Source of the DNA: Prevotellaceae bacterium
Lineage (GTDB): Bacteria > Bacteroidota > Bacteroidia > Bacteroidales > Bacteroidaceae
Reading direction: 5' to 3'
DNA length: 11,574 nucleotides
NCBI GenBank assembly: GCA_021204165.1
Contig: JAJPZU010000112.1
Coordinates: forward strand, 1-11,574
The position numbers were made by a program, and so were the translations under genes. Below the pieces are notes generated by a model. The model did no database searches, was not told the DNA's origin, and saw only the letters and a list, made by a program, of their open reading frames with translations. How positions within the stretch are numbered: the first letter of the stretch is position 1; the number at the start of each line of letters is the position of its first letter. Below are positions 11 through 11,574 of the stretch, one piece after another.

Positions 11-129
11 AGGTGGCGCGTAGCGACGGAGGAGTCTGTCGAAAACACCCACCAACTACACACGAGGAGTCTGCTGAAAACATCCCGCTAAATATACATG
101 AGTAGTCTGTAAATACACTCACTTAAACA
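11..129. repeat. Left arm of the window-bracketing inverted repeat: 36-nt terminal core (11-46) followed inward by iterated GAGGAGTCTG-centred motifs
   Basis: AGGTGGCGCGTAGCGACGGAGGAGTCTGTCGAAAAC (11-46) equals the reverse complement of 11538-11574 except for one extra G in the right copy. The motif GAGGAGTCTG / GAGTAGTCTG recurs at 29-38, 64-73 and 100-109, each followed by a GAAAACAYCC-like tail. Weaker similarity to the right arm continues to about 129. Confidence 0.85.
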
Positions 130-2308: not shown

Positions 2309-3835
2309 TTATACTCTCAACACACCCTTCTGCAATCCGAATGTTCTCCAGCGATTGATGGCGGACTGTCCCTGTTTGCATTCAGCCGCCCCACCGGTAT
2401 TTTCCTCCAGATTCATAAGGTAGTCTATGTAGGCGGCAATCACCGCCATCTCTTCGCTCTCGTTCTTGAATCCCGGACGCGGACGCAGACGCTCCGCATT
2501 GCGCTCTATAAAATAGGTGTTGTAGTTTCCTTCACGGAAATCAGGCACATCAATGATGCGGCGCAAGTAGCGTATGTTCGTAGTCAGACCGACAATCTTA
2601 TATTCATACAGCACTCTCCTCATGCGCTCAATGGCATACTGTCTCTCCGTAGCCCAAACGATAAGCTTTCCAATCATCGGATCGTAATGTACGGGAATCT
2701 CATAGCCCTCATATACATAGCTGTCGATTCGGATACCAATGCCGTGAGGCTCTGTGAGCTGAACAATCGTTCCCGGCGAAGGCATGAAGTTATGCTCCGT
2801 ATCCTCCGCACAGATGCGGCACTCTATGGCATGTCCTCTTTGGCGGATATCCTCCTGACGGTAGCCCAGCGGTTGTCCGTCAGCAATAAGAATCTGCTGT
2901 TTCACAAGATCGACGCCGACAACTTCTTCCGTGATAGGATGCTCCACCTGAAGCCGGGTGTTCATTTCAAGGAAATAGAAATGATGGTGCTTATCCACAA
3001 GAAACTCAATGGTGCCGGCACCGATGTAGCCCACCGCTTTTGCCGCAGCCACCGCCTTCTCGCCCATTTCGCGGCGAAGAGTGTCATCAATAAACGGCGA
3101 CGGACTTTCTTCTACTATTTTCTGGTGACGACGCTGCACAGAACATTCGCGGTCGTAAAGATGGATGACATTGCCATGCTTGTCGCCAAGTATCTGAAAC
3201 TCTATGTGGTGAGGCTCCTCGACAAACTTTTCGATATAGACTGTATCATCGCCAAACGAAGCCATCGCCTCGTTCTTTGCCGCATTGTACATCTCTATCA
3301 CATCTTCTTCGCGTTCAATAAGTCTCATGCCTTTTCCGCCGCCACCCATAGAAGCCTTCAGCATCACGGGGAAGCCAATCTTTCGGCACACCTCCAAGGC
3401 TTCCTCGCCACTGCTCAATTGCTCCTGAGTTCCGGGCACAACGGGCACTCCCGCCTTTATCATCTGTATGCGGGCGGAAATCTTGTCGCCCATCAATTCC
3501 ATGGTTTCCGGCTTTGGACCGATGAAGATGATGCCTTCAGCTTCACAACGACGCGCAAACTCGGAATTTTCGGAAAGGAAACCGTATCCCGGGTGAATGG
3601 CATCCACTTTGTGCTTCTTTGCCGCCTCGATAATGTGGTCGATATTCAGGTAGCTGTCTGCCGACGACGCACCGCCGATACACTCTGCTTCGTTTGCAAA
3701 AACGACATGGCGCGACAGACGGTCGGCAGTGCTATAGACAGCCACAGAACGTATGCCCATTTCATAACAAGCACGCATCACCCGAATCGCAATCTCACCG
3801 CGATTGGCAACCAATACTTTTCTTATCATAAACAT
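2309..3835 (-). CDS. accC: Biotin carboxylase (ATP-grasp) subunit of acyl-CoA carboxylase
   Basis: 508-aa ORF with KVLVANRGEIAIRVMRA at the N-terminus, the glycine-rich ATP-grasp loop LKASMGGGGKGMR, and EMNTRLQVEHPITE. M1 or M3 could be the true start. Confidence 0.95.
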   Translation of the reverse strand: MFMIRKVLVANRGEIAIRVMRACYEMGIRSVAVYSTADRLSRHVVFANEAECIGGASSADSYLNIDHIIEAAKKHKVDAIHPGYGFLSENSEFARRCEAEGIIFIGPKPETMELMGDKISARIQMIKAGVPVVPGTQEQLSSGEEALEVCRKIGFPVMLKASMGGGGKGMRLIEREEDVIEMYNAAKNEAMASFGDDTVYIEKFVEEPHHIEFQILGDKHGNVIHLYDRECSVQRRHQKIVEESPSPFIDDTLRREMGEKAVAAAKAVGYIGAGTIEFLVDKHHHFYFLEMNTRLQVEHPITEEVVGVDLVKQQILIADGQPLGYRQEDIRQRGHAIECRICAEDTEHNFMPSPGTIVQLTEPHGIGIRIDSYVYEGYEIPVHYDPMIGKLIVWATERQYAIERMRRVLYEYKIVGLTTNIRYLRRIIDVPDFREGNYNTYFIERNAERLRPRPGFKNESEEMAVIAAYIDYLMNLEENTGGAAECKQGQSAINRWRTFGLQKGVLRV

Positions 3836-4352
3836 CTATATTTGGTTATACACTTTCTTCCATCTCAAAACAAAATATAATACGATATCAGAAAGCACAC
3901 TCCGAGAACCGCATGACAAAGCGGACAACTCACGAAAGAATACATATCCCAAGAATACATGAATACACAAAAAACACCGATATTCCATCCCGGAATCTCA
4001 GCAAAACAGTATTCTCAGTATTTTTCCGGCAGCTCTTATTCCCGAGAGCGGCATCTGAACATCGGCATCGGCAGGTCTTCTGACTTCTCCATTGGCAGCA
4101 CGGCCTTCCCAACCACAATTATTTACAGCCTCACGGCAATAACAAAGGTCAGTGGCACAACATGATGATGTGTTGCCATAAAAAACAGGAGTTACAGCTA
4201 CGGGTATAGTTACAGACTCACACTGTATTCCCTCTTAGTCTGTCCGTCTTTCCTGAGTGCTTCTTCCTGAAGTCCGCCATTCCCGAAATCAGATTAGGCA
4301 AATTCCAGTCTCAACAAGCCTCAAATGAAGAGGACAAGAACCAAATGCGCGG

Positions 4353-4424: not shown

Positions 4425-4512
4425 TGTGTTTTCTCCGGTATTTCCCCTGTGCTTTTCCGGTATTTTCCCGGTGTTCTTCCTGTATTTTTCCTGTATTTTC
4501 CCGGTTTTTTCC
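4425..4512. repeat. Eight tandem 11-bp units (consensus CKGTNTTTTCC), a phased T/A-tract array
   Basis: The units are tgtgttttctc, cggtatttccc, ctgtgcttttc, cggtattttcc, cggtgttcttc, ctgtatttttc, ctgtattttcc and cggttttttcc, in exact 11-bp register. The period is not a multiple of 3, so the repetitive FPVFS-type peptides in the overlapping plus-strand ORFs are artefacts. Confidence 0.85.
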
Positions 4513-4578: not shown

Positions 4579-5955
4579 TCAGTCTTCTACTTCTTCCGCA
4601 TCCACAGCAGGCTCTTCTTTTTTCTTCGCCAGATACTCCGGCAAATTAAGCCCCGCCATATCGAAAAGTTCGTTAAGCGGCGGAACAGACTTCATCAGTC
4701 CGGACACGAAACCGGCTGTAGAGCCTTTTCCGTCTGCACCACCGGCACCATTGTCCCAAACAGTCACATGGTCAATGTTGATACCCTTGACAGCCTCAAC
4801 CTGAGTCTTGACAAGCTCAGGAAGCTTTTCGAGCAGCAACAGCATGTATGCCTTGTTGGCATCTCCTCCGGCAGCCTGAACCATCTTGTCATAACCGGCA
4901 GCCTGCTTCGTCAGCACTTCATACAAACCTTTTGCTTCTGCCTCCATCTTGGCATAAATGGCATCTGCTTCACCCTTTGCATTGACACGCACGCGCTCTG
5001 CTTCCGCCTCCGCTTCGATGATAAGTCGTCTCTTCTCAATCTCCTGCGGAACGAGTACGTTGGCTGTTTCCGTAGAGCGTTCACGTTCTGCACGCGCTTC
5101 CTCAGCCTCGCGTTCTGCCGCGTATGCTTCCTGCAATGCCTTTGCCTGCTGTACTTTTTCTGAGGCTGTGGCTTTACGCTGTGCCTCCGCTTCCTTCTCA
5201 CGGCGATAAGCCTCGGATGCAGCAATGGCAACCTTCGCTTCGTTCTCACCCTTTACGGCTTCCGCATTGGCTTCGGCTGTACGTATGCGGGTTTCTCTCA
5301 CCGCTTCCGCCTTACCGATTTCACCGACTTTATCTTGCTCTGCCACTCTCACTTTTGCCTCATTTATCGCTTTGGCAGCAGCTTCACGTCCGAGAGCCTC
5401 TATATATCCGCTCTCATCTTTTATATCGGTCACGTTCACATTTATCAGACGAAGACCAATCTTTTTCAGTTCCACTTCTACATTGGCAGAAATGCTCTCA
5501 AGAAACTTGTCACGGTCGTTGTTCAGTTCCTCAATACTCATCGTGGCAATTACCAGACGCAACTGTCCGAAAAGAATATCACGCGCCAGTTCCTGTATCT
5601 GTGCAGCACTAAGTCCGAGCAAACGTTCCGCAGCTGCATTCATGCAATCGTGGTCTGTAGATATACCCACAGTGAAGCGGCTTGGCACATCCACACGGAT
5701 GTTCTGTTTGCTGAGCGCATTTGTCAGATTCGCATCAATACTGATTGGTGTAAGGCTAAGATAAGCATAGTCTTCGATTATAGGCCATACGAAAGCACCG
5801 CCGCCATGCACGCAACGTGCCGACGTTTTGCTGCTTTTACTCCCATAAATCACCAAAATTTTGTCCGAAGGACACCGTCTGTAACGATTCACAATGGAAA
5901 CGAACAGCGCAATAGCCACTACAGCGGCAATTACAATAAGATACATAGATTCCAT
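4579..5955 (-). CDS. Flotillin-like SPFH/band-7 family membrane protein (YqiK-like)
   Basis: 458-aa ORF with an N-terminal TM helix (YLIVIAAVVAIALFVSIV), an SPFH-like core, and a long Ala/Glu/Arg-rich coiled-coil (AEREAEEARAERER, IIEAEAEAERVRVNAKGEADA) typical of bacterial flotillins. It is paired with an upstream NfeD-like gene. Confidence 0.9.
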   Translation of the reverse strand: MESMYLIVIAAVVAIALFVSIVNRYRRCPSDKILVIYGSKSSKTSARCVHGGGAFVWPIIEDYAYLSLTPISIDANLTNALSKQNIRVDVPSRFTVGISTDHDCMNAAAERLLGLSAAQIQELARDILFGQLRLVIATMSIEELNNDRDKFLESISANVEVELKKIGLRLINVNVTDIKDESGYIEALGREAAAKAINEAKVRVAEQDKVGEIGKAEAVRETRIRTAEANAEAVKGENEAKVAIAASEAYRREKEAEAQRKATASEKVQQAKALQEAYAAEREAEEARAERERSTETANVLVPQEIEKRRLIIEAEAEAERVRVNAKGEADAIYAKMEAEAKGLYEVLTKQAAGYDKMVQAAGGDANKAYMLLLLEKLPELVKTQVEAVKGINIDHVTVWDNGAGGADGKGSTAGFVSGLMKSVPPLNELFDMAGLNLPEYLAKKKEEPAVDAEEVED

Positions 5956-6039: not shown

Positions 6040-6128
6040 TTCATCTCTCTTGGTCAAAAATTCTCATCCCTTTGGGTCAAAATTTTCATTCCTTTAGTCA
6101 AAAAAATCTCATCCCTTTGGGTCAAAGA
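6040..6128. repeat. Four tandem 21-24-bp direct repeats (TTCTCATCCCTTTGGGTCAAAA-like) in the NfeD-like/flotillin spacer
   Basis: Copies lie at 6040-6060, 6061-6082, 6083-6106 and 6107-6128. Copies 2 and 4 share the exact 20-mer tctcatccctttgggtcaaa (6062-6081 and 6107-6126). Copy 4 overlaps the stop codon of the NfeD-like gene (6122-6124). Confidence 0.85.
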
Positions 6129-6700
6129 TTCTCTACCACCAGCATTTCTCCGCCGACAACATCAGTAATCCGCACCTTGCGCCCTGTGGTTATCGCCTCA
6201 CCCTCTGTAACCGCATCCAGTTCATGCACGGAACCGTTCACACTTATCTGCACTTTTCCTCTGCCGCTCTTCTTCTCCGGAATGCGCAGATAGACATCTG
6301 CCACACGTCCCTTGCAATATTCAATGCGGAAGGCGCCGTTTGCCTCCAGCTTCTTGGTCTGCTTGTAGATAAAGAAGAACATCCACACAAAAAACAAGCC
6401 TACGGCTGCTGCCACGAGTGCCAGCAACACAGCATTACCCATCAGCGAATGCAGACAGACACCTGCCCAGCCGAAGCCCACAAAGAAATTGACAAGGCTC
6501 CTTATAGAGAACAACGACAGTCCTCCTCCCAAATCCATTGTGTCTCCGGCATCAAAATCGACATCTATGTCGCTTGAATCCATTCCGAACAACGTAAGCA
6601 GAAGCTGTATTACAAACACAGCTGACCCGACAAGTGCACAAACCCAGAACACTTGCTGCATAGTTTCAAGTCCACTGAACCAAATTGAAAAACTCTCCAT
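6122..6700 (-). CDS. NfeD/YqiJ-like membrane protein (OB-fold C-terminal tail), partner of the flotillin gene
   Basis: 192-aa ORF with several hydrophobic helices (VFWVCALVGSAVFVIQLLLTLF, LVNFFVGFGWAGVCL, AVLLALVAAAVGLFFVWMFFFIY). The beta-rich C-terminus (GRGKVQISVNGSVHELDAVTEGEAITTGRKVRITDVVGGEMLVV) resembles the NfeD OB domain. The gene order NfeD-then-SPFH is canonical. Confidence 0.8.
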   Translation of the reverse strand: MESFSIWFSGLETMQQVFWVCALVGSAVFVIQLLLTLFGMDSSDIDVDFDAGDTMDLGGGLSLFSIRSLVNFFVGFGWAGVCLHSLMGNAVLLALVAAAVGLFFVWMFFFIYKQTKKLEANGAFRIEYCKGRVADVYLRIPEKKSGRGKVQISVNGSVHELDAVTEGEAITTGRKVRITDVVGGEMLVVENL

Positions 6701-6899
6701 ATTCTAATTAGTTTTACGGTTATATAAATCATATTCTGAAATGATATGTCCACCATCTATTTTACAAAGAGGGAACATCCTTAAAAAAAATAACATTACC
6801 AGACTGCATTTTTCATTAAACACTCTCCTTCTCACTGCATTTTCATAATTCATAAAAGACTCCGATTAATTATTTTAATGATAAATGCCAATCTTATAA

Positions 6900-7580
6900 T
6901 TACCATACATATTGCGATGGATATTTTACTTGCATGAAAGTGAAGCCATGCCCCATTACGCTATGGTGAGAAGTCGTCTGTGCTGTCATATTTGATACAA
7001 TACTGCCAAACACCTGCATATTTGCTCTTGCGTCACCGCGTGAAGCAAGAATGGGTGCATCAGGGACATCGTAATCGCGCCATGCAAATAAGCAGACCTT
7101 TTGGGGATATGTCAAGAGATTTACAGCTGTTGTAGATTCTTGAATCAAAACTTCTATCGATTTAAGCATTTGCTGTCTGGCTTTTGCCCGTTTCCCTTCC
7201 GGGTATTTTCCCGTATTAGGCTCAACATATTTTTCCTCATAACAACACAAGTCACAGAATACAACTTTTTCATGTACCATTCCTGTCTCTGTCATTAATA
7301 AATCACATCGGTCTTTAATATTGGCAGTAGTGCCTGCAAATTGTTCGATATACTTTTCAAAACGAACCACAGCAATTTCCTTGCCATTATTATTCACCTT
7401 CAGAACTTCTTTATTGCATTCATTACGGTAAGCCCTTTCAGGCAATTGCTGACATCGTATGCAACTCTTGGAGTCGGTTTCTGAGAAAGGTTCGCGTATT
7501 CTGTAGAGAGGCACTTCTACTTCTTGTGGATTTATGCCATAATGGAGCGGGAATGCCTTTTTAAGAAAAGATTCTATCAT
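6900..7580 (-). CDS. Hypothetical 226-aa Cys-rich protein, putative effector partner of the upstream ATPase; no family assigned
   Basis: Uninterrupted 226-aa ORF whose ATG overlaps the ATPase stop (ATGA at 7577-7580). It contains CIRC (CxxC) and CDLCC cysteine clusters. Possible catalytic-type strings are LLMTETG, YEEK and WRDYDVPD. I recognise no family signature. Confidence 0.7.
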   Translation of the reverse strand: MIESFLKKAFPLHYGINPQEVEVPLYRIREPFSETDSKSCIRCQQLPERAYRNECNKEVLKVNNNGKEIAVVRFEKYIEQFAGTTANIKDRCDLLMTETGMVHEKVVFCDLCCYEEKYVEPNTGKYPEGKRAKARQQMLKSIEVLIQESTTAVNLLTYPQKVCLFAWRDYDVPDAPILASRGDARANMQVFGSIVSNMTAQTTSHHSVMGHGFTFMQVKYPSQYVW

Positions 7581-8737
7581 ACGTCAAGATTTACAAATTC
7601 ATTATAAATGTGACTCATCAACTCTGAGAGGTCGTAAGTATCTACAATCCACCGTCCGCGTTCATTTTGGACAAGCAAATCTTGTATCTCTCCTTCATAT
7701 ATTCGATAAACAGCCGTGTTAGTCCTGCTCAATTGGGCACGTACTGCATTTGTTTGGTTTAGTAAAACATTCAAGTAGTTAAGAATATACGGACTATGGG
7801 TCGCAAGCATCATATTAATTTCTCGATTTTCATCCGCATGTGTTGCCGACAGCACAATTTCTTCTATGAGTTTGCACTGTGCATCAGGGAACAGACTTAA
7901 CTCAGGTTCTTCAATATGGATATATACTTGTTTCTTCAAATCGCTGGGTTCTGCGACAGCCCGAAACTTGTTCAATCTTTCCATATCATACAGATAGTTC
8001 AGGACAGAGCGCTTGAATGCGTCCTTAAATGAAAAGCCATTTGCGCTGGCATAGTTCTTTACAATCAAAGCGACCGATGCTGACGTTTGAATGCCGGATG
8101 AAGCTTCTCGTAAGTCGATTGGCTCATGACGGCTGTCATTTGGAATGACGGTGTAGCGTGTAGGCTTACCTTTGGGGTGGGTTATCTGAAGCTTCATGCC
8201 TATATAGTCCAACGGTATCTCTTTGTCGTTTGCCGATGCTCTGACAAAATCATTGTTTGTTTCATGAAAATAAAATCCCAAGGTTGCACCTGTGTTTTGG
8301 GATGCCTTTTGCGCCCATGTCGGAATGATGTTTCGGTTTTCAGAGATATAGGACACTTTGTTGAACACCAAATGGTCAGAAGATATAATGGGAAGTCTGC
8401 CTAATTTCTTGTTTTCCATCAAGATGGTGTATTCCGTTTCATCATCCATGACTACACTATACCTAATTACACTTGACGAGTCAAGCATTTTATACATTCC
8501 CGTTTCTTTCATCATCGAATCGAAGCGCATCCTGAAAGGAGAGCTTGTTATTTTTGAATGCTTCAAATAAGAACGGATGTTTGCCATTTTGTACAGATAG
8601 CGCATCATGCTTATCAGCTTCATCAGTGTGCTTTTACCACTTGCGGATTCACCAATCAACACAGTGAATGGCAGAAGGCCAAGGTTCTCAATGTGCTTTA
8701 GCGGACCAATATTTTTAATTGTTATAAATTCCTTCAT
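7577..8737 (-). CDS. Stand-alone ABC/SMC-like ATPase (AAA_15/AAA_21-type), defence-associated architecture
   Basis: Walker A is LIGESASGKSTL, the Walker-B-like strand is VYIHIEEPELSLFP, and the H-loop-like motif is LATHSPYILNYL. The ORF track extends to 8815, but MKEFITIKNIGPL (ATG at 8735-8737) matches the usual N-terminus of this ATPase class, so the 26-aa extension is probably not translated. Confidence 0.88.
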   Translation of the reverse strand: MKEFITIKNIGPLKHIENLGLLPFTVLIGESASGKSTLMKLISMMRYLYKMANIRSYLKHSKITSSPFRMRFDSMMKETGMYKMLDSSSVIRYSVVMDDETEYTILMENKKLGRLPIISSDHLVFNKVSYISENRNIIPTWAQKASQNTGATLGFYFHETNNDFVRASANDKEIPLDYIGMKLQITHPKGKPTRYTVIPNDSRHEPIDLREASSGIQTSASVALIVKNYASANGFSFKDAFKRSVLNYLYDMERLNKFRAVAEPSDLKKQVYIHIEEPELSLFPDAQCKLIEEIVLSATHADENREINMMLATHSPYILNYLNVLLNQTNAVRAQLSRTNTAVYRIYEGEIQDLLVQNERGRWIVDTYDLSELMSHIYNEFVNLDV

Positions 8738-8916
8738 AATAAAGTTTTGTTTTTCAAACAATCTGATAAAGTATGATTTACCCAATAAAGATACTAATTT
8801 GTACTTCAACAGCAAAAAAAATCCTGTATTGTGACGCTAAAAACGTGAATTTATTACAGAAATGGCACTTTGTCATGTCAAATCAGAAGGTGAAGTGTCA
8901 AAACAGGAGATACAAT

Positions 8917-8924
8917 CCAAACTT
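8917..8924 (-). promoter_or_regulatory. Candidate -7 promoter element (TAAGTTTG on the minus strand) upstream of the ATPase cassette
   Basis: Matches TAnnTTTG on the minus strand. It lies in the AT-rich spacer between the ParB-like stop (8957) and the ATPase start, about 180 nt upstream of the ATG at 8737. Motif match only. Confidence 0.25.
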
Positions 8925-8956
8925 ATTGTTGCATGAACATCTGGGGCCAGAGCCGC

Positions 8957-9478
8957 CTAATCCTCCAGCCAGTCCTCCGACAAACTGAAGTCCTTGTCCG
9001 CAAACAAGTCCGCCAGCCCGGAAATCTGCTTCAGCCTCAACAGCTCATCCTTGTCCATGCCGATATTGCGCATAATCCACGCATCCGACATGCCCGCAGA
9101 CGTAAGCTCCGACACGATGTGGCTCATCAGCTCTATCGTGTGCGTACCCCTCGCCCTGTTATGACGTATGGTCGAAGCCATTCTGCACGAAATATCCTTG
9201 TCTATCACCGACACGGGAAGCATCCCCTTCTCCCTGTCATAAATTCGTTTCGATGTCTTCATCACCAGATAGCGGTGGAATCCATCTACAATCTCATACT
9301 TGTCCTCGTCCTTCAAGTAATAGCACACGCAAGGCATGGTGTACCCGTCCTCCCATATCGACAGTTCCAACAGCTTCATCTCCGGAGGAGCCACCATGTT
9401 GGGGTTATAATTGTTCGCCACCACTTTCTCGATAGGCACTGCTATCACATTATATACCGGACTCTTAAAATTTTCCAT
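8957..9478 (-). CDS. ParB/sulfiredoxin-fold domain protein (IbrB-like / DndB-like)
   Basis: 173-aa ORF with ANNYNPN and EIVDGFHRYLV (a ParB-type DGxHR box). Its start overlaps the end of the PAPS-reductase-family gene by 14 nt. Confidence 0.85.
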   Translation of the reverse strand: MENFKSPVYNVIAVPIEKVVANNYNPNMVAPPEMKLLELSIWEDGYTMPCVCYYLKDEDKYEIVDGFHRYLVMKTSKRIYDREKGMLPVSVIDKDISCRMASTIRHNRARGTHTIELMSHIVSELTSAGMSDAWIMRNIGMDKDELLRLKQISGLADLFADKDFSLSEDWLED

Positions 9479-10763
9479 ATTCCAATGCTTTATATTTTCT
9501 CATCACACTTTCTCGTCTGCTCTTCTCATTCTTGGTCAGGGTAAAGCCCATGTACTTACACACATGGTCGTTTCTCAGTATGCAGATGCAGACACGCTTG
9601 AATGTCGGAATCTCCCGAAACTCCGGAATGTCTATGTCGTCAACGTACTCCATCATGACCGGTCTTTTGTTAGTGCGGTATGCCGTGGTCGTCCCAACCG
9701 TAAACTTCACCCCTGCCGCACGCAATTTTTCAATGGTCTCATCGCTCAGACATCCGCCTTTCGTCCTCCAGAATCTCATGCTCACACCTATCTTGTCCAG
9801 ATAATTGCGGCACACCTTCTCCGGCAACGTGTCCAGCAGAAAGTACATGTACTTTTTCCAAGAAAATCCGTGAGGACATTTTATCGACTTCCATCCCATA
9901 GCCGTCGTATTCCCGTAGATGCCGGAAAAATTGACACCATTGACACGGCTGACCATCCGCCCCCACATGTCGGGGTCTATCGCCCGATAGACACTCAGCG
10001 TAGGTATGGCATGAGAAATGAACGGACTTGCCACCCGCTGCCGCCCAATCGGAATGCCCGCACGCGAATAAAGGTCATAAAGCGGATTATAAGTCCATCC
10101 GAATTTTCCGTTTGCCGTCCAGATGTCAGATGTTTTCCAGTCATAAAGCGGATAAGCGTTATACACATGTGCAGCAAGCTTATGTGTCCATTTGTAATGC
10201 GAAAGCCGCCGGTAGTTCTTGGCATTGTGTATGGCCGTCCACCGGTTAAAACTCTCCTGCGTCCTTATGCCTACAAGACAACATATACGTTCACATTTCT
10301 TCCGGTTGCGCAGCCAAGGGGCGAAAAGATACTGGAAGTCATAGTCCCACAAGGCATCAGTGAAGAAATTGAAATCGGCTGCCGTATAAGCCCCCTCAGG
10401 CATTTCCCTCACCCATATATCCTTCTCCGATTCTCCCCAAGGTCTCCAATACGACTGGTGCATGGATGTACAGGTCATGACTTTGAAGGGCACGCAACAA
10501 TGGTACACCTCCAGAATGTCGCGATTCTCCGACAGGGTACGGCGCACATACTCCGTGGTCTGCCGGTACTGCACCTCGTAGTCCATGTGGAACACACCCA
10601 GCTTACGTCCCGGAGCATACCTCCGTATATAGTCTATGCACAGATTCAACAACACTCCGCTGTCCTTGCCACCCGAAAACGAGACATACACATAATCGAA
10701 ATAATCGAATATGATCTTCAGCCTCCTTTGCACTGCTTCATAAACATCAAGTTGCCTAATCAT
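9465..10763 (-). CDS. Phosphoadenosine-phosphosulfate (PAPS) reductase-family PP-loop protein with extended C-terminal domain (IbrA-like / DndC-like)
   Basis: 432-aa ORF with the PP-loop ATP-pyrophosphatase motif VSFSGGKDSGVLL near the N-terminus. The long Trp/Tyr-rich C-terminal extension resembles IbrA-type proteins. It is paired with a ParB-like gene. Confidence 0.88.
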   Translation of the reverse strand: MIRQLDVYEAVQRRLKIIFDYFDYVYVSFSGGKDSGVLLNLCIDYIRRYAPGRKLGVFHMDYEVQYRQTTEYVRRTLSENRDILEVYHCCVPFKVMTCTSMHQSYWRPWGESEKDIWVREMPEGAYTAADFNFFTDALWDYDFQYLFAPWLRNRKKCERICCLVGIRTQESFNRWTAIHNAKNYRRLSHYKWTHKLAAHVYNAYPLYDWKTSDIWTANGKFGWTYNPLYDLYSRAGIPIGRQRVASPFISHAIPTLSVYRAIDPDMWGRMVSRVNGVNFSGIYGNTTAMGWKSIKCPHGFSWKKYMYFLLDTLPEKVCRNYLDKIGVSMRFWRTKGGCLSDETIEKLRAAGVKFTVGTTTAYRTNKRPVMMEYVDDIDIPEFREIPTFKRVCICILRNDHVCKYMGFTLTKNEKSRRESVMRKYKALEYGKF

Positions 10764-11164
10764 TCCTTACGTCCTCCGGCATATACCATCTTGTCATAAT
10801 TCTTCCATTCCCTATGTGTCCTGAAGCCGTTGCGTGCAAAGTCAGCCACATGACGCTTGTGTACGACTGCGGTCAGCACAGTCCTGCTCACCGACTCCGC
10901 CACCACCCTGTCGAGCAGAGCATCAATGAGCAAAGAATCGTCGCCCTTGATATAATAATTGTCAATACAGGCTTCACGCTCTTTCTCCTTTACCGGAATG
11001 AATCCGATTACCTCCTTTTTCTCTATGGCCACATACCATTTGTGATGACGGGAGGTCTTGAAGGGATAATTGTTGTTGAGCCTCAACACTGCCGCATTCA
11101 TCACCAGCGGTGCCACCAGCTCATAAAGGCGGGAAGATGTGCCTTCTAAAATCTCAATATTCAT
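10760..11164 (-). CDS. Small GNAT-like (acetyltransferase-fold) protein, function unknown
   Basis: 134-aa ORF whose stop overlaps the next start (ATGA at 10760-10763). The C-terminal VADFARNGFR resembles the GNAT motif-B region, but the usual R/QxxGxG/A acetyl-CoA loop is not evident. The fold call is therefore tentative. Confidence 0.55.
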   Translation of the reverse strand: MNIEILEGTSSRLYELVAPLVMNAAVLRLNNNYPFKTSRHHKWYVAIEKKEVIGFIPVKEKEREACIDNYYIKGDDSLLIDALLDRVVAESVSRTVLTAVVHKRHVADFARNGFRTHREWKNYDKMVYAGGRKE

Positions 11165-11312
11165 AAAAACAGTCTTTTTGATTCTTGCCTATCCCGACTT
11201 CCGAATCATGAGAGTCTCGGTCTTATAAAGAAGATACATCAGTTGCCACATCCGTAATCTATAAACAGCAGACATCATGAACCATCAAAGTCAAGTAATG
11301 CAATAAACTATG

Positions 11313-11320
11313 CAAAAGTA
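11313..11320 (-). promoter_or_regulatory. Candidate -7 promoter element (TACTTTTG on the minus strand) for the GNAT-like/PAPS-reductase/ParB operon
   Basis: Exact TAnnTTTG match on the minus strand, about 150 nt upstream of the first gene of the operon (ATG at 11162-11164). No other gene lies between. No -33 element is seen. Confidence 0.35.
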
Positions 11321-11424
11321 CGACAAATACCTTTTTTATTCTACCCGATGTCATATTTTTTACAAGAAGAATACTTAGATACTGTTTTTTAGAAGCCGTT
11401 TGTTTAAATGAATGTATTCAACAA

Positions 11425-11574
11425 TTTTAAGCTTGTCTATTTAACGGACTCCTCATGTGTATTTAGTGGAATGTTTTTATATTTGGTGGGGTGTTCTCGG
11501 CAGACTCCTCATGTGTGAATTGTATGTGTTAGCAGACGTTTTCGACAGACTCCTCCGTCGCTACCGCGCCACCT
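11425..11574. repeat. Right arm of the window-bracketing inverted repeat: 37-nt terminal core (11538-11574) plus three inverted iterations of the GAGGAGTCTG motif
   Basis: CAGACTCCTC / CGGACTCCTC occurs at 11546-11555, 11501-11510 and 11445-11454. The reverse complement of 11425-11457 (catgaggagtccgttaaatagacaagcttaaaa) aligns with the left arm at 97-129. The core ends exactly at the last base of the window. Confidence 0.85.

Follow-up and report, generated by a model that had tools for sequence, protein, structure and literature searches.

A probable nuclease partner of an ABC-type ATPase in a compact two-gene cassette of gut and rumen Bacteroidales

Introduction

ABC ATPases of the AAA15/21 class are probable infection sensors that are coupled to varied effector domains (PMC11464382). 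In PARIS, a hexamer of the ATPase AriA sequesters AriB and releases it upon ATP-dependent detection of a phage protein, and the freed AriB cleaves tRNA-Lys (PMC11464382). Such ATPases are emerging as general sensors of infection, with TOPRIM effectors in PARIS, Gabija and AbiL and an HNH effector in Septu. Here we describe a pair of this general type in an 11,574-nucleotide (nt) stretch of contig JAJPZU010000112.1 from a Prevotellaceae bacterium (assembly GCA_021204165.1); this whole stretch is called the window, and its positions are used below. The pair consists of an AAA_15/AAA_21 ATPase and a 226-amino-acid (aa) partner protein. Because the partner, a cysteine-rich protein, has a predicted restriction-endonuclease-like rather than a TOPRIM fold and its gene always comes right after that of the ABC-type ATPase, it most likely serves as the nuclease component of a little-studied two-gene module that is a candidate for phage defence. 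Our overall reading, which we hold to be somewhat probable, is that the 226-aa protein is the nuclease-type effector of an ABC-ATPase-plus-nuclease module, and that this module is a divergent relative of PDC-M29, a candidate system modelled in PADLOC. In such labels PDC stands for "phage defence candidate" and M for multi-gene. Four of eight other PDC candidates were protective, or about 50% (PMC12881386).

An unannotated protein family paired with an ABC-type ATPase

In the window's list of open reading frames (ORFs), the partner is a minus-strand ORF of 226 codons with an ATG start (Table 1). Family scans of its product against Pfam, NCBIfam, PHROGs and PADLOC gave no match; a sub-threshold match to Abhydrolase_8 (E 0.02) was judged to be noise. 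Despite this absence of a family annotation, the partner is a real, conserved gene. A collection of 5.8 billion proteins yielded 98 homologues at 34-90% identity, none of them annotated by Pfam, and an exhaustive profile search returned 333 cluster representatives (50% identity clusters, E up to 1e-3); among the best 150 of the 333, most are about 200-235 aa long. Matches in genomes come almost exclusively from metagenome-assembled genomes of gut, faecal and rumen Bacteroidales (Prevotella/Segatella, Muribaculaceae, Alistipes and Bacteroidaceae). A few matching contigs were binned to Oscillospiraceae or Clostridiales, and the Firmicutes binning of loci L018, L021, L024, L026 and L028 may reflect either horizontal transfer or mis-binning. 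In L026 (locus positions 2196-2648; Vescimonas bin) and L028 (1130-1519; Anaerovoracaceae bin), the partner aligns only C-terminally, from aa 74 or aa 100 onward, and the ATPase is intact or nearly so; these two partner copies may be decayed or mis-assembled.

The ATPase is readily recognized. Its mechanically called ORF reaches a TTG at 8815; homologues of 383-387 aa align from the ATG at 8737, the start adopted here. Pfam assigns AAA_21 (3.7e-14) and AAA_15 (2.5e-12), and the Walker A, signature-like, Walker B and H-loop motifs are all intact (Table 1). The best PADLOC match is PDC-M29A (E 2.1e-26, 91.1 bits; residues 31-365 aligned to positions 4-337 of a 410-position profile), followed by weaker matches to AriA (3.3e-14), NsnB, PDC-M56A, ATPase-Toprim_I-B, HEC-01A and PtuA. 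Similarity extends as well to the AbiLi and retron Eco8 effector models.

The association of the two genes is strict in the loci examined. In each of 34 loci an ATPase homologue lies directly upstream of the partner, and the two genes usually overlap by 4 nt (as in L001-L008 and L035-L042). Such an overlap with an AAA_15 ATPase gene is likewise seen for partner members at 24-27% identity. In the window the stop codon of the ATPase and the start codon of the partner share the sequence ATGA, an overlap that implies probable translational coupling. The pairwise-identity matrices of partner and ATPase are correlated at r = 0.79, a value reached in 0 of 2000 Mantel permutations: the two proteins co-evolve. 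Mean pairwise identity is 43.5% for the partner versus 59.5% for the ATPase, and the partner is the less conserved of the two in 99% of pairs. We have little doubt that the ATPase and the 226-aa protein are physical and functional partners.

A predicted restriction-endonuclease-like fold

The question of fold rested on two AlphaFold models together with conservation in more than 200 homologues. Conservation was counted in 212 full-length members and in a set of 68 diverse ones with identities of 23-58% (alignment A3), and AlphaFold2 (AF2) was run on the window protein with a 92-sequence alignment. In the resulting model (predicted local distance difference test 86.8, predicted template modelling score 0.84), the N-terminal elements, with H for helix and E for strand, are H2-13, E25-28, E32-35, H37-45, H47-52, E58-63 and E69-73; C40 and C43 sit on two short helices, and hairpins are formed at 25-35 and 58-73. 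What follows is a predicted alpha/beta core that resembles those of restriction endonucleases. Helix 74-79, carrying E75, precedes a hairpin of strands 94-98 and 105-113, which is entered at C92-D93 and whose second strand bears D110 and C113; helix 130-146 begins with K130 and contains Q137, strand 160-168 ends in R168, and the C-terminal part is a helical and beta region. D93 thus stands directly before strand 94-98 and D/E110 in the middle of beta3, 17 residues on, at the positions expected of a PD-(D/E)xK nuclease. The pair D450/D467 of FokI has the same 17-residue spacing.

Comparison of structures points the same way. In a Foldseek search of the Protein Data Bank (PDB), McrC ranked first, without significance. 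The ten best matches of a relative with 26% identity all counted toward fold-level support for PD-(D/E)xK. At the sequence level, the Pfam model SduA_C was weakly matched by two of the 68 diverse members (best E 7.6e-4). Matches of alignments A2/A3 to DnaA domain I and to the FBXO11 UBR-type zinc (Zn) finger among PDB sequences were discarded as insignificant (E 0.25-0.5). On the basis of the models, we consider a PD-(D/E)xK, or restriction-endonuclease-like, fold very probable.

The initial annotation of this ORF had been built on short motifs, from which it drew a TOPRIM and a PD-(D/E)xK reading and a possible Zn site. The ORF and every quoted string were located: CIRC at aa 40-43, CDLCC at aa 109-113, CCYEEK at aa 112-117, VCLFAWRDYDVPD at aa 162-174 (containing D169 and D171), and CDLLMTETG at aa 92-100, the Glu of which is E98 rather than E97 as had been written. 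The reported absence of an HNH motif from the partner was also borne out. In 20,000 composition-preserving shuffles of the 226-aa protein, bare CxxC, DxD and ExK motifs occurred in 23%, 22% and 77%, respectively. The short motifs alone are at chance level and uninformative, and homologues and fold were therefore needed to decide.

Under the TOPRIM reading, the partner would be an AriB-, OLD- or DUF4435-like protein with a metal site made of E98 and D169-x-D171, and the locus a PARIS- or AbiL-type pair. This would suit the secondary similarity of the ATPase to the AriA, ATPase-Toprim_I-B and AbiLi models, and position 98 is acidic in 85% of the 212 members; moreover, most characterised AAA15/21 partners are TOPRIM proteins (PMC11464382). 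However, position 98 is S, N, G or T in the remaining 15% and falls on the turn between two antiparallel strands, not at the end of a parallel, Rossmann-like strand. Position 169 is Asp in just 97 of 212 members (46%; acidic in 66%) and position 171 in 73 (34%), the corresponding counts in the 68 diverse members being 15 and 18. Neither the window protein nor its 68 relatives matched the TOPRIM, DUF4435, OLD or RloB profiles, and the AF2 model, with its restriction-endonuclease-like core, gave no TOPRIM structure match. A TOPRIM partner has, in our judgment, next to no chance of being correct.

The PD-(D/E)xK reading survived in part. The fold and the invariant D93 of CDLLM stand, whereas E115-x-K117, both residues of which vary (position 115 is acidic in 41% of the 212 members and position 117 is Lys in 59%), was rejected as the (D/E)xK motif. 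E128-G-K130 was likewise rejected as an ExK motif: conservation is confined to G129 and K130, and the Glu varies.

Conserved polar residues and a five-cysteine site

The most conserved positions were largely absent from the initial list, which lacked D36, C55, C92, K130, Q137 and R168. D36 and K130 are found in 212/212 members, Q137 in 211/212, D93 in 210/212 and R168 in 206/212; position 75 is E or D in 210/212, and position 110 is acidic in 212/212 (D in 144, E in 68). Across the 68 diverse members D36, D93, K130, Q137 and R168 are invariant (68/68), position 75 is E or D in 97%, and position 110 is always D or E. Among the residues that had been proposed, D93, C40, C43 and C113 are kept, and E98, D169/D171, E115/K117, C109 (Cys in 77% of the 212) and C112 (Cys in 39%) vary.

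Five cysteines are conserved as well: C40 and C113 in 209 members each, C92 in 208, C55 in 207 and C43 in 186 of the 212, with the complete set in 180. Of the 26 members that lack C43, 22 gain a Cys 2-3 residues N-terminal of C55, so that the CxxC shifts from C40-x2-C43 to C-x2/3-C55. Such relocation of a Cys ligand is expected of a metal-binding site and therefore supports one here. A metal site formed by C40, C43, C55, C92 and C113 is likely on this pattern of conservation. The earlier idea of a Zn site remains plausible with this different set of ligands; C109 and C112, which had been included, are clade-specific.

Five conserved cysteines, and an invariant Gln in the helix after beta3 that recalls the QxxxY motif, also bring to mind a Cas4/AddB/RecB-type nuclease with the cysteines binding a [4Fe-4S] cluster. 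In Cas4 and AddB, one Cys is N-terminal and a CxxCx5C lies C-terminal to the core, and the motif order is D...ExK...QxxxY. The layout here differs, with three cysteines N-terminal to the core and two in the catalytic hairpin. The partner has neither the ExK lysine nor the Tyr of QxxxY (Q137-x3-S), does not match the PDDEXK_1 or Cas4 profiles, and in structural comparison scores higher with McrC-, FokI- and Card1-type nucleases than with the Cas4/AddB/RecB type. A Cas4-like family assignment is unlikely, and we regard a cluster-bearing nuclease of that type as improbable.

A mobile cassette

The cassette stands out by its composition: GC content is 40.4% in the partner gene, 40.6% in the ATPase gene and 27-34% in the flanking intergenic regions, compared with 47-51% in the neighbouring genes; for the pair as a whole the value is 40.5%, versus about 49% in the flanks. 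None of the window's neighbouring genes travels with the pair in the 34 other loci. Insertion sites elsewhere vary and are mostly among housekeeping genes, with DDE transposases adjoining at times. The pair behaves like a cassette of two genes that is complete in itself and moves horizontally, yet is not reliably located within defence islands.

A few loci carry conflict-type genes downstream of the pair, inconsistently across loci. In L035 and L036 (locus positions 7825-8874) the pair is followed by a possibly conflict-related gene, which in L035 encodes a HATPase_c_4/HTH protein. In L037 (6543-8021) an SMC_N/AAA_15/AAA_23 ATPase gene follows, with a gene for a RyR-domain protein between, and a DDE transposase gene lies upstream of the pair. 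Repeats flanking the window's cassette were rejected as att sites, being short two-copy matches of chance quality. A scan for sigma-70 promoters and terminators was uninformative, with counts at or below shuffle expectation, the sigma-70 model being ill-suited to Bacteroidetes promoters.

Proposed mechanism and the case for nuclease and defence functions

We propose that E75, D93 and D/E110 coordinate a catalytic Mg2+ and that R168 and D36 complete the active site. The canonical Lys would be replaced by K130, acting with Q137 from the N-terminal part of the next helix. In the Cfr10I/NgoMIV group, a catalytic residue is supplied by the helix after beta3, and BamHI and BglII are active without the canonical Lys. 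It is because of these precedents, a helix-borne residue and an absent Lys, that K130 is put forward as the functional Lys. The three N-terminal cysteines (C40, C43 and C55) and the two that flank the catalytic hairpin (C92 and C113) would jointly bind a structural metal, either Zn or an Fe-S cluster, and this five-Cys centre would tie the N-terminal module to the catalytic hairpin. Since two of the putative Cys ligands adjoin catalytic residues, C92 being next to D93 and C113 three residues past D/E110, metal or redox switching is possible in principle; that metal loss or oxidation could switch the nuclease activity is speculative. On the model of PARIS and Septu, the ATPase, translated together with the nuclease, would assemble with it and hold it inactive, serving as an ATP-dependent sensor. 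A trigger such as phage infection would then release or activate the nuclease, and the freed enzyme would cut nucleic acid, DNA or tRNA, with the result that phage replication or host growth is halted. The choice between DNA and RNA as substrate cannot be inferred because the structural neighbours of the partner include both DNases and RNases.

Several observations weigh against this reading, as regards either the nuclease or its place in defence. The canonical (D/E)xK Lys, at +2 of D/E110, is absent family-wide; position 112 is T in 87, C in 83, S in 18 and Y in 12 of the 212 members, and Cys in the window protein. Scans with Pfam and NCBIfam and against PDB sequence profiles gave no convincing profile match to any characterised PD-(D/E)xK family. 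Relatives of the partner were matched zero times by tblastn in phage and plasmid collections, no consistent defence-island context was seen across the examined loci, and the searchable literature mentions neither the PDC-M29 label nor a mechanism or experiment for it. The link to PDC-M29 is, moreover, transitive and mostly weak: individually inspected relatives match PDC-M29B at E 1e-3 to 7e-3, and the window partner has no match to it even at E up to 1.

The T, C or S at the canonical Lys position and the missing nuclease match at the sequence level would both be expected of a catalytically inactive PD-(D/E)xK fold, which might serve as an adaptor that binds nucleic acid or the trigger, or as a regulator of the ATPase. 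On this reading any toxic or effector activity would arise elsewhere: from ATP depletion, from DNA binding by the ATPase or from a host factor. The faster evolution of the partner could likewise fit a specificity or sensor subunit. However, D36, E75, D93, D/E110, K130, Q137 and R168 are near-invariant down to 23% identity, and seven near-invariant polar residues are typical of an active site rather than of a binding surface. We rate the inactive protein as decidedly unlikely and judge from the pattern of conserved residues that the partner is probably an active nuclease.

A role other than phage defence would make the pair a selfish cassette of the addiction or toxin-antitoxin-like kind, or else an accessory factor in DNA repair or recombination, spread horizontally in gut Bacteroidales. 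A low-GC cassette inserted among housekeeping genes, at times beside transposases and in no constant defence-island neighbourhood, is compatible with this, as is the standing of PDC-M29 as a computational candidate without a published test. The closest ATPase models, in contrast, all belong to defence or candidate defence systems (PDC-M29A, AriA, NsnB, PtuA, HEC-01A and the retron Eco8 effector), and a sporadic distribution with a rapidly evolving partner fits conflict systems. One and the same module can, in any case, serve both addiction and defence. We consider a non-anti-phage pair unlikely and, by analogy with these systems, incline slightly toward an anti-phage role for the nuclease-bearing module.

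The boldest form of the proposal would combine all of these elements: an undescribed PD-(D/E)xK subfamily with its Lys relocated to K130, a five-Cys Zn or Fe-S centre wired into the catalytic hairpin, gating by metal or redox state and by the ATPase, and a new anti-phage system, widespread among the Bacteroidales of gut and rumen, that current PADLOC models miss. Taken as a whole, it is possible but doubtful.

Coordinates and neighbouring features

Table 1. Features of the ATPase-partner cassette in the window
Feature	Position	Strand	Basis or remark
Low-GC two-gene cassette with flanking intergenic regions	6701..8956	.	GC, neighbour comparison
ABC-type (AAA_15/AAA_21) ATPase, 386 aa from ATG at 8737	7577..8737	-	Pfam, PADLOC, homologue alignment
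Walker A, GESASGKS	8630-8653	-	Intact in ATPase
Signature-like motif, SSGIQ	8087-8101	-	Intact in ATPase
Walker B, IHIEEPE	7901-7921	-	Intact in ATPase
H-loop, ATHSP	7790-7804	-	Intact in ATPase
ATGA overlap of ATPase stop codon and partner start codon	7577..7580	-	
226-aa partner protein, unannotated family, predicted PD-(D/E)xK-like fold	6900..7580	-	ORF call
N-terminal Cys-bearing module, aa 1-73, with invariant D36 and conserved C40/C43/C55	7362..7580	-	Predicted secondary structure and conservation
Predicted restriction-endonuclease-like core, aa 74-226	6903..7361	-	E75 helix, C92-D93/D110...C113 hairpin, K130/Q137 helix, R168-ending strand
C92-D93 codons: putative metal-ligand Cys and invariant Asp at start of core strand beta2 ("PD" position)	7302..7307	-	Conservation
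D110-L-C-C113 codons: invariant acidic residue in beta3, conserved C113	7242..7253	-	Conservation
K130-Q137 codons: N-terminal end of helix after beta3	7170..7193	-	Conservation; active-site role inferred

Directly upstream of the cassette, three overlapping minus-strand genes of host-like GC (8957-11164) encode a ParB_N-like protein (phrog_2159, 1.3e-77), a PAPS-reductase/DUF3440 protein (PF11922, 1.1e-87; phrog_2302, 1.4e-98) that is weakly similar to BrxP/DndC, and a protein of 134 aa whose match to RimI-type acetyltransferases is faint. The ParB_N-like and PAPS-reductase genes resemble an IbrB/IbrA-type pair. They were rejected as members of the ATPase-partner system, having no homologue in the 34 loci and a host-like GC. 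Beyond this trio, positions 11165-11574 have 37% GC and no ORF of at least 60 aa, so that the accessory region may extend past the right end of the window.

On the other side, a full-length cobalamin riboswitch (4053-4296, minus strand; Rfam RF00174, 71.6 bits, E 2e-16) precedes a minus-strand operon for biotin carboxylase (2309-3835), a biotin carboxyl carrier-like protein (1674-2192) and a carboxyltransferase (227-1681), which appears to be a B12-regulated acyl-CoA carboxylase or decarboxylase operon. Three tandem arrays were also seen. About four copies of a 23-nt repeat with the consensus TCATCCCTTTGGGTCAAAAATTC (6041-6133) lie in the short spacer between an NfeD-like gene (6122-6700) and a flotillin/SPFH gene (4579-5955). 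Just beyond the 3' end of the minus-strand flotillin gene (stop at 4579) and upstream of the riboswitch lie about 7.6 copies of an 11/22-nt unit, TTTTTCCGGTA (4425-4512). The third array, at the left end of the window (29-109), has 2.3 copies of a 36-nt unit.

Comparison with known systems

An architecture of ABC ATPase plus small nuclease is already known, and a PADLOC candidate model touches this family; no publication that characterises the ATPase-partner system was found in the searchable literature. The locus adds to the repertoire of AAA15/21 partners an effector family with a predicted restriction-endonuclease fold and with no Pfam or NCBIfam model or characterised member. What is new in this family is a non-canonical active-site signature, a five-Cys centre, and a clade, mostly of gut and rumen Bacteroidales, that current models miss; the defence repertoire of these bacteria is poorly tested. 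If validated, the pair would give a function to a PDC-M29-like candidate, allow better detection models and provide a compact system to set beside PARIS and Septu. It would establish no new principle, and its value would be incremental unless the Cys cluster regulates catalysis.

The likeness of the partner to McrC is at the level of the fold, with 10-12% identity over about 105 residues. McrC, about 350 aa long, carries a canonical D...DxK, and its partner is an AAA+ GTPase, not an ABC ATPase. It also has no counterpart of the Cys cluster found in the window partner. With Cas4 and AddB, the partner shares a predicted PD-(D/E)xK core, conserved cysteines through which a metal cluster probably holds the fold together, and the Gln in the helix after beta3; it differs in where the Cys ligands lie and in having no ExK lysine or profile match.

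In Septu, too, an AAA_15/21 ATPase is accompanied by a small nuclease that has its own gene, and PtuA models match the window ATPase at about 1e-7 to 1e-8. However, the window partner has no HNH motif or fold, and the ATPase is closer to PDC-M29A than to PtuA. PARIS resembles the pair in joining an AAA15/21 ABC ATPase to a small, co-evolving nuclease-type partner in two genes (PMC11464382; matrices here), and the window ATPase matches AriA models at about 3e-14. The differences lie in the partner, where a predicted restriction-endonuclease fold with a Cys cluster stands in place of the TOPRIM/DUF4435 fold of AriB, and in the ATPase, which is shorter (386 aa versus about 55 kDa for AriA). Sequester-and-release as in PARIS is a likely analogue for the working of this pair.

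The closest likeness is to PDC-M29. The window ATPase matches PDC-M29A better than any other model, over 334 of 410 profile positions, and the two-gene order is identical, with a small co-oriented partner downstream of the ATPase. Among the 68 distant relatives of the partner, 14 match PDC-M29B (PDLC04563; best E 1.1e-8) and one matches PDLC04564. The PDC-M29B model has 164 positions, versus about 215-226 aa in the partners here; this difference in length, with the absent PDC-M29B match of the window partner, is why the pair is placed on a divergent branch, beyond the calling of PADLOC v2. Judged by its sequences, the pair is a divergent branch of, or a sister to, PDC-M29.

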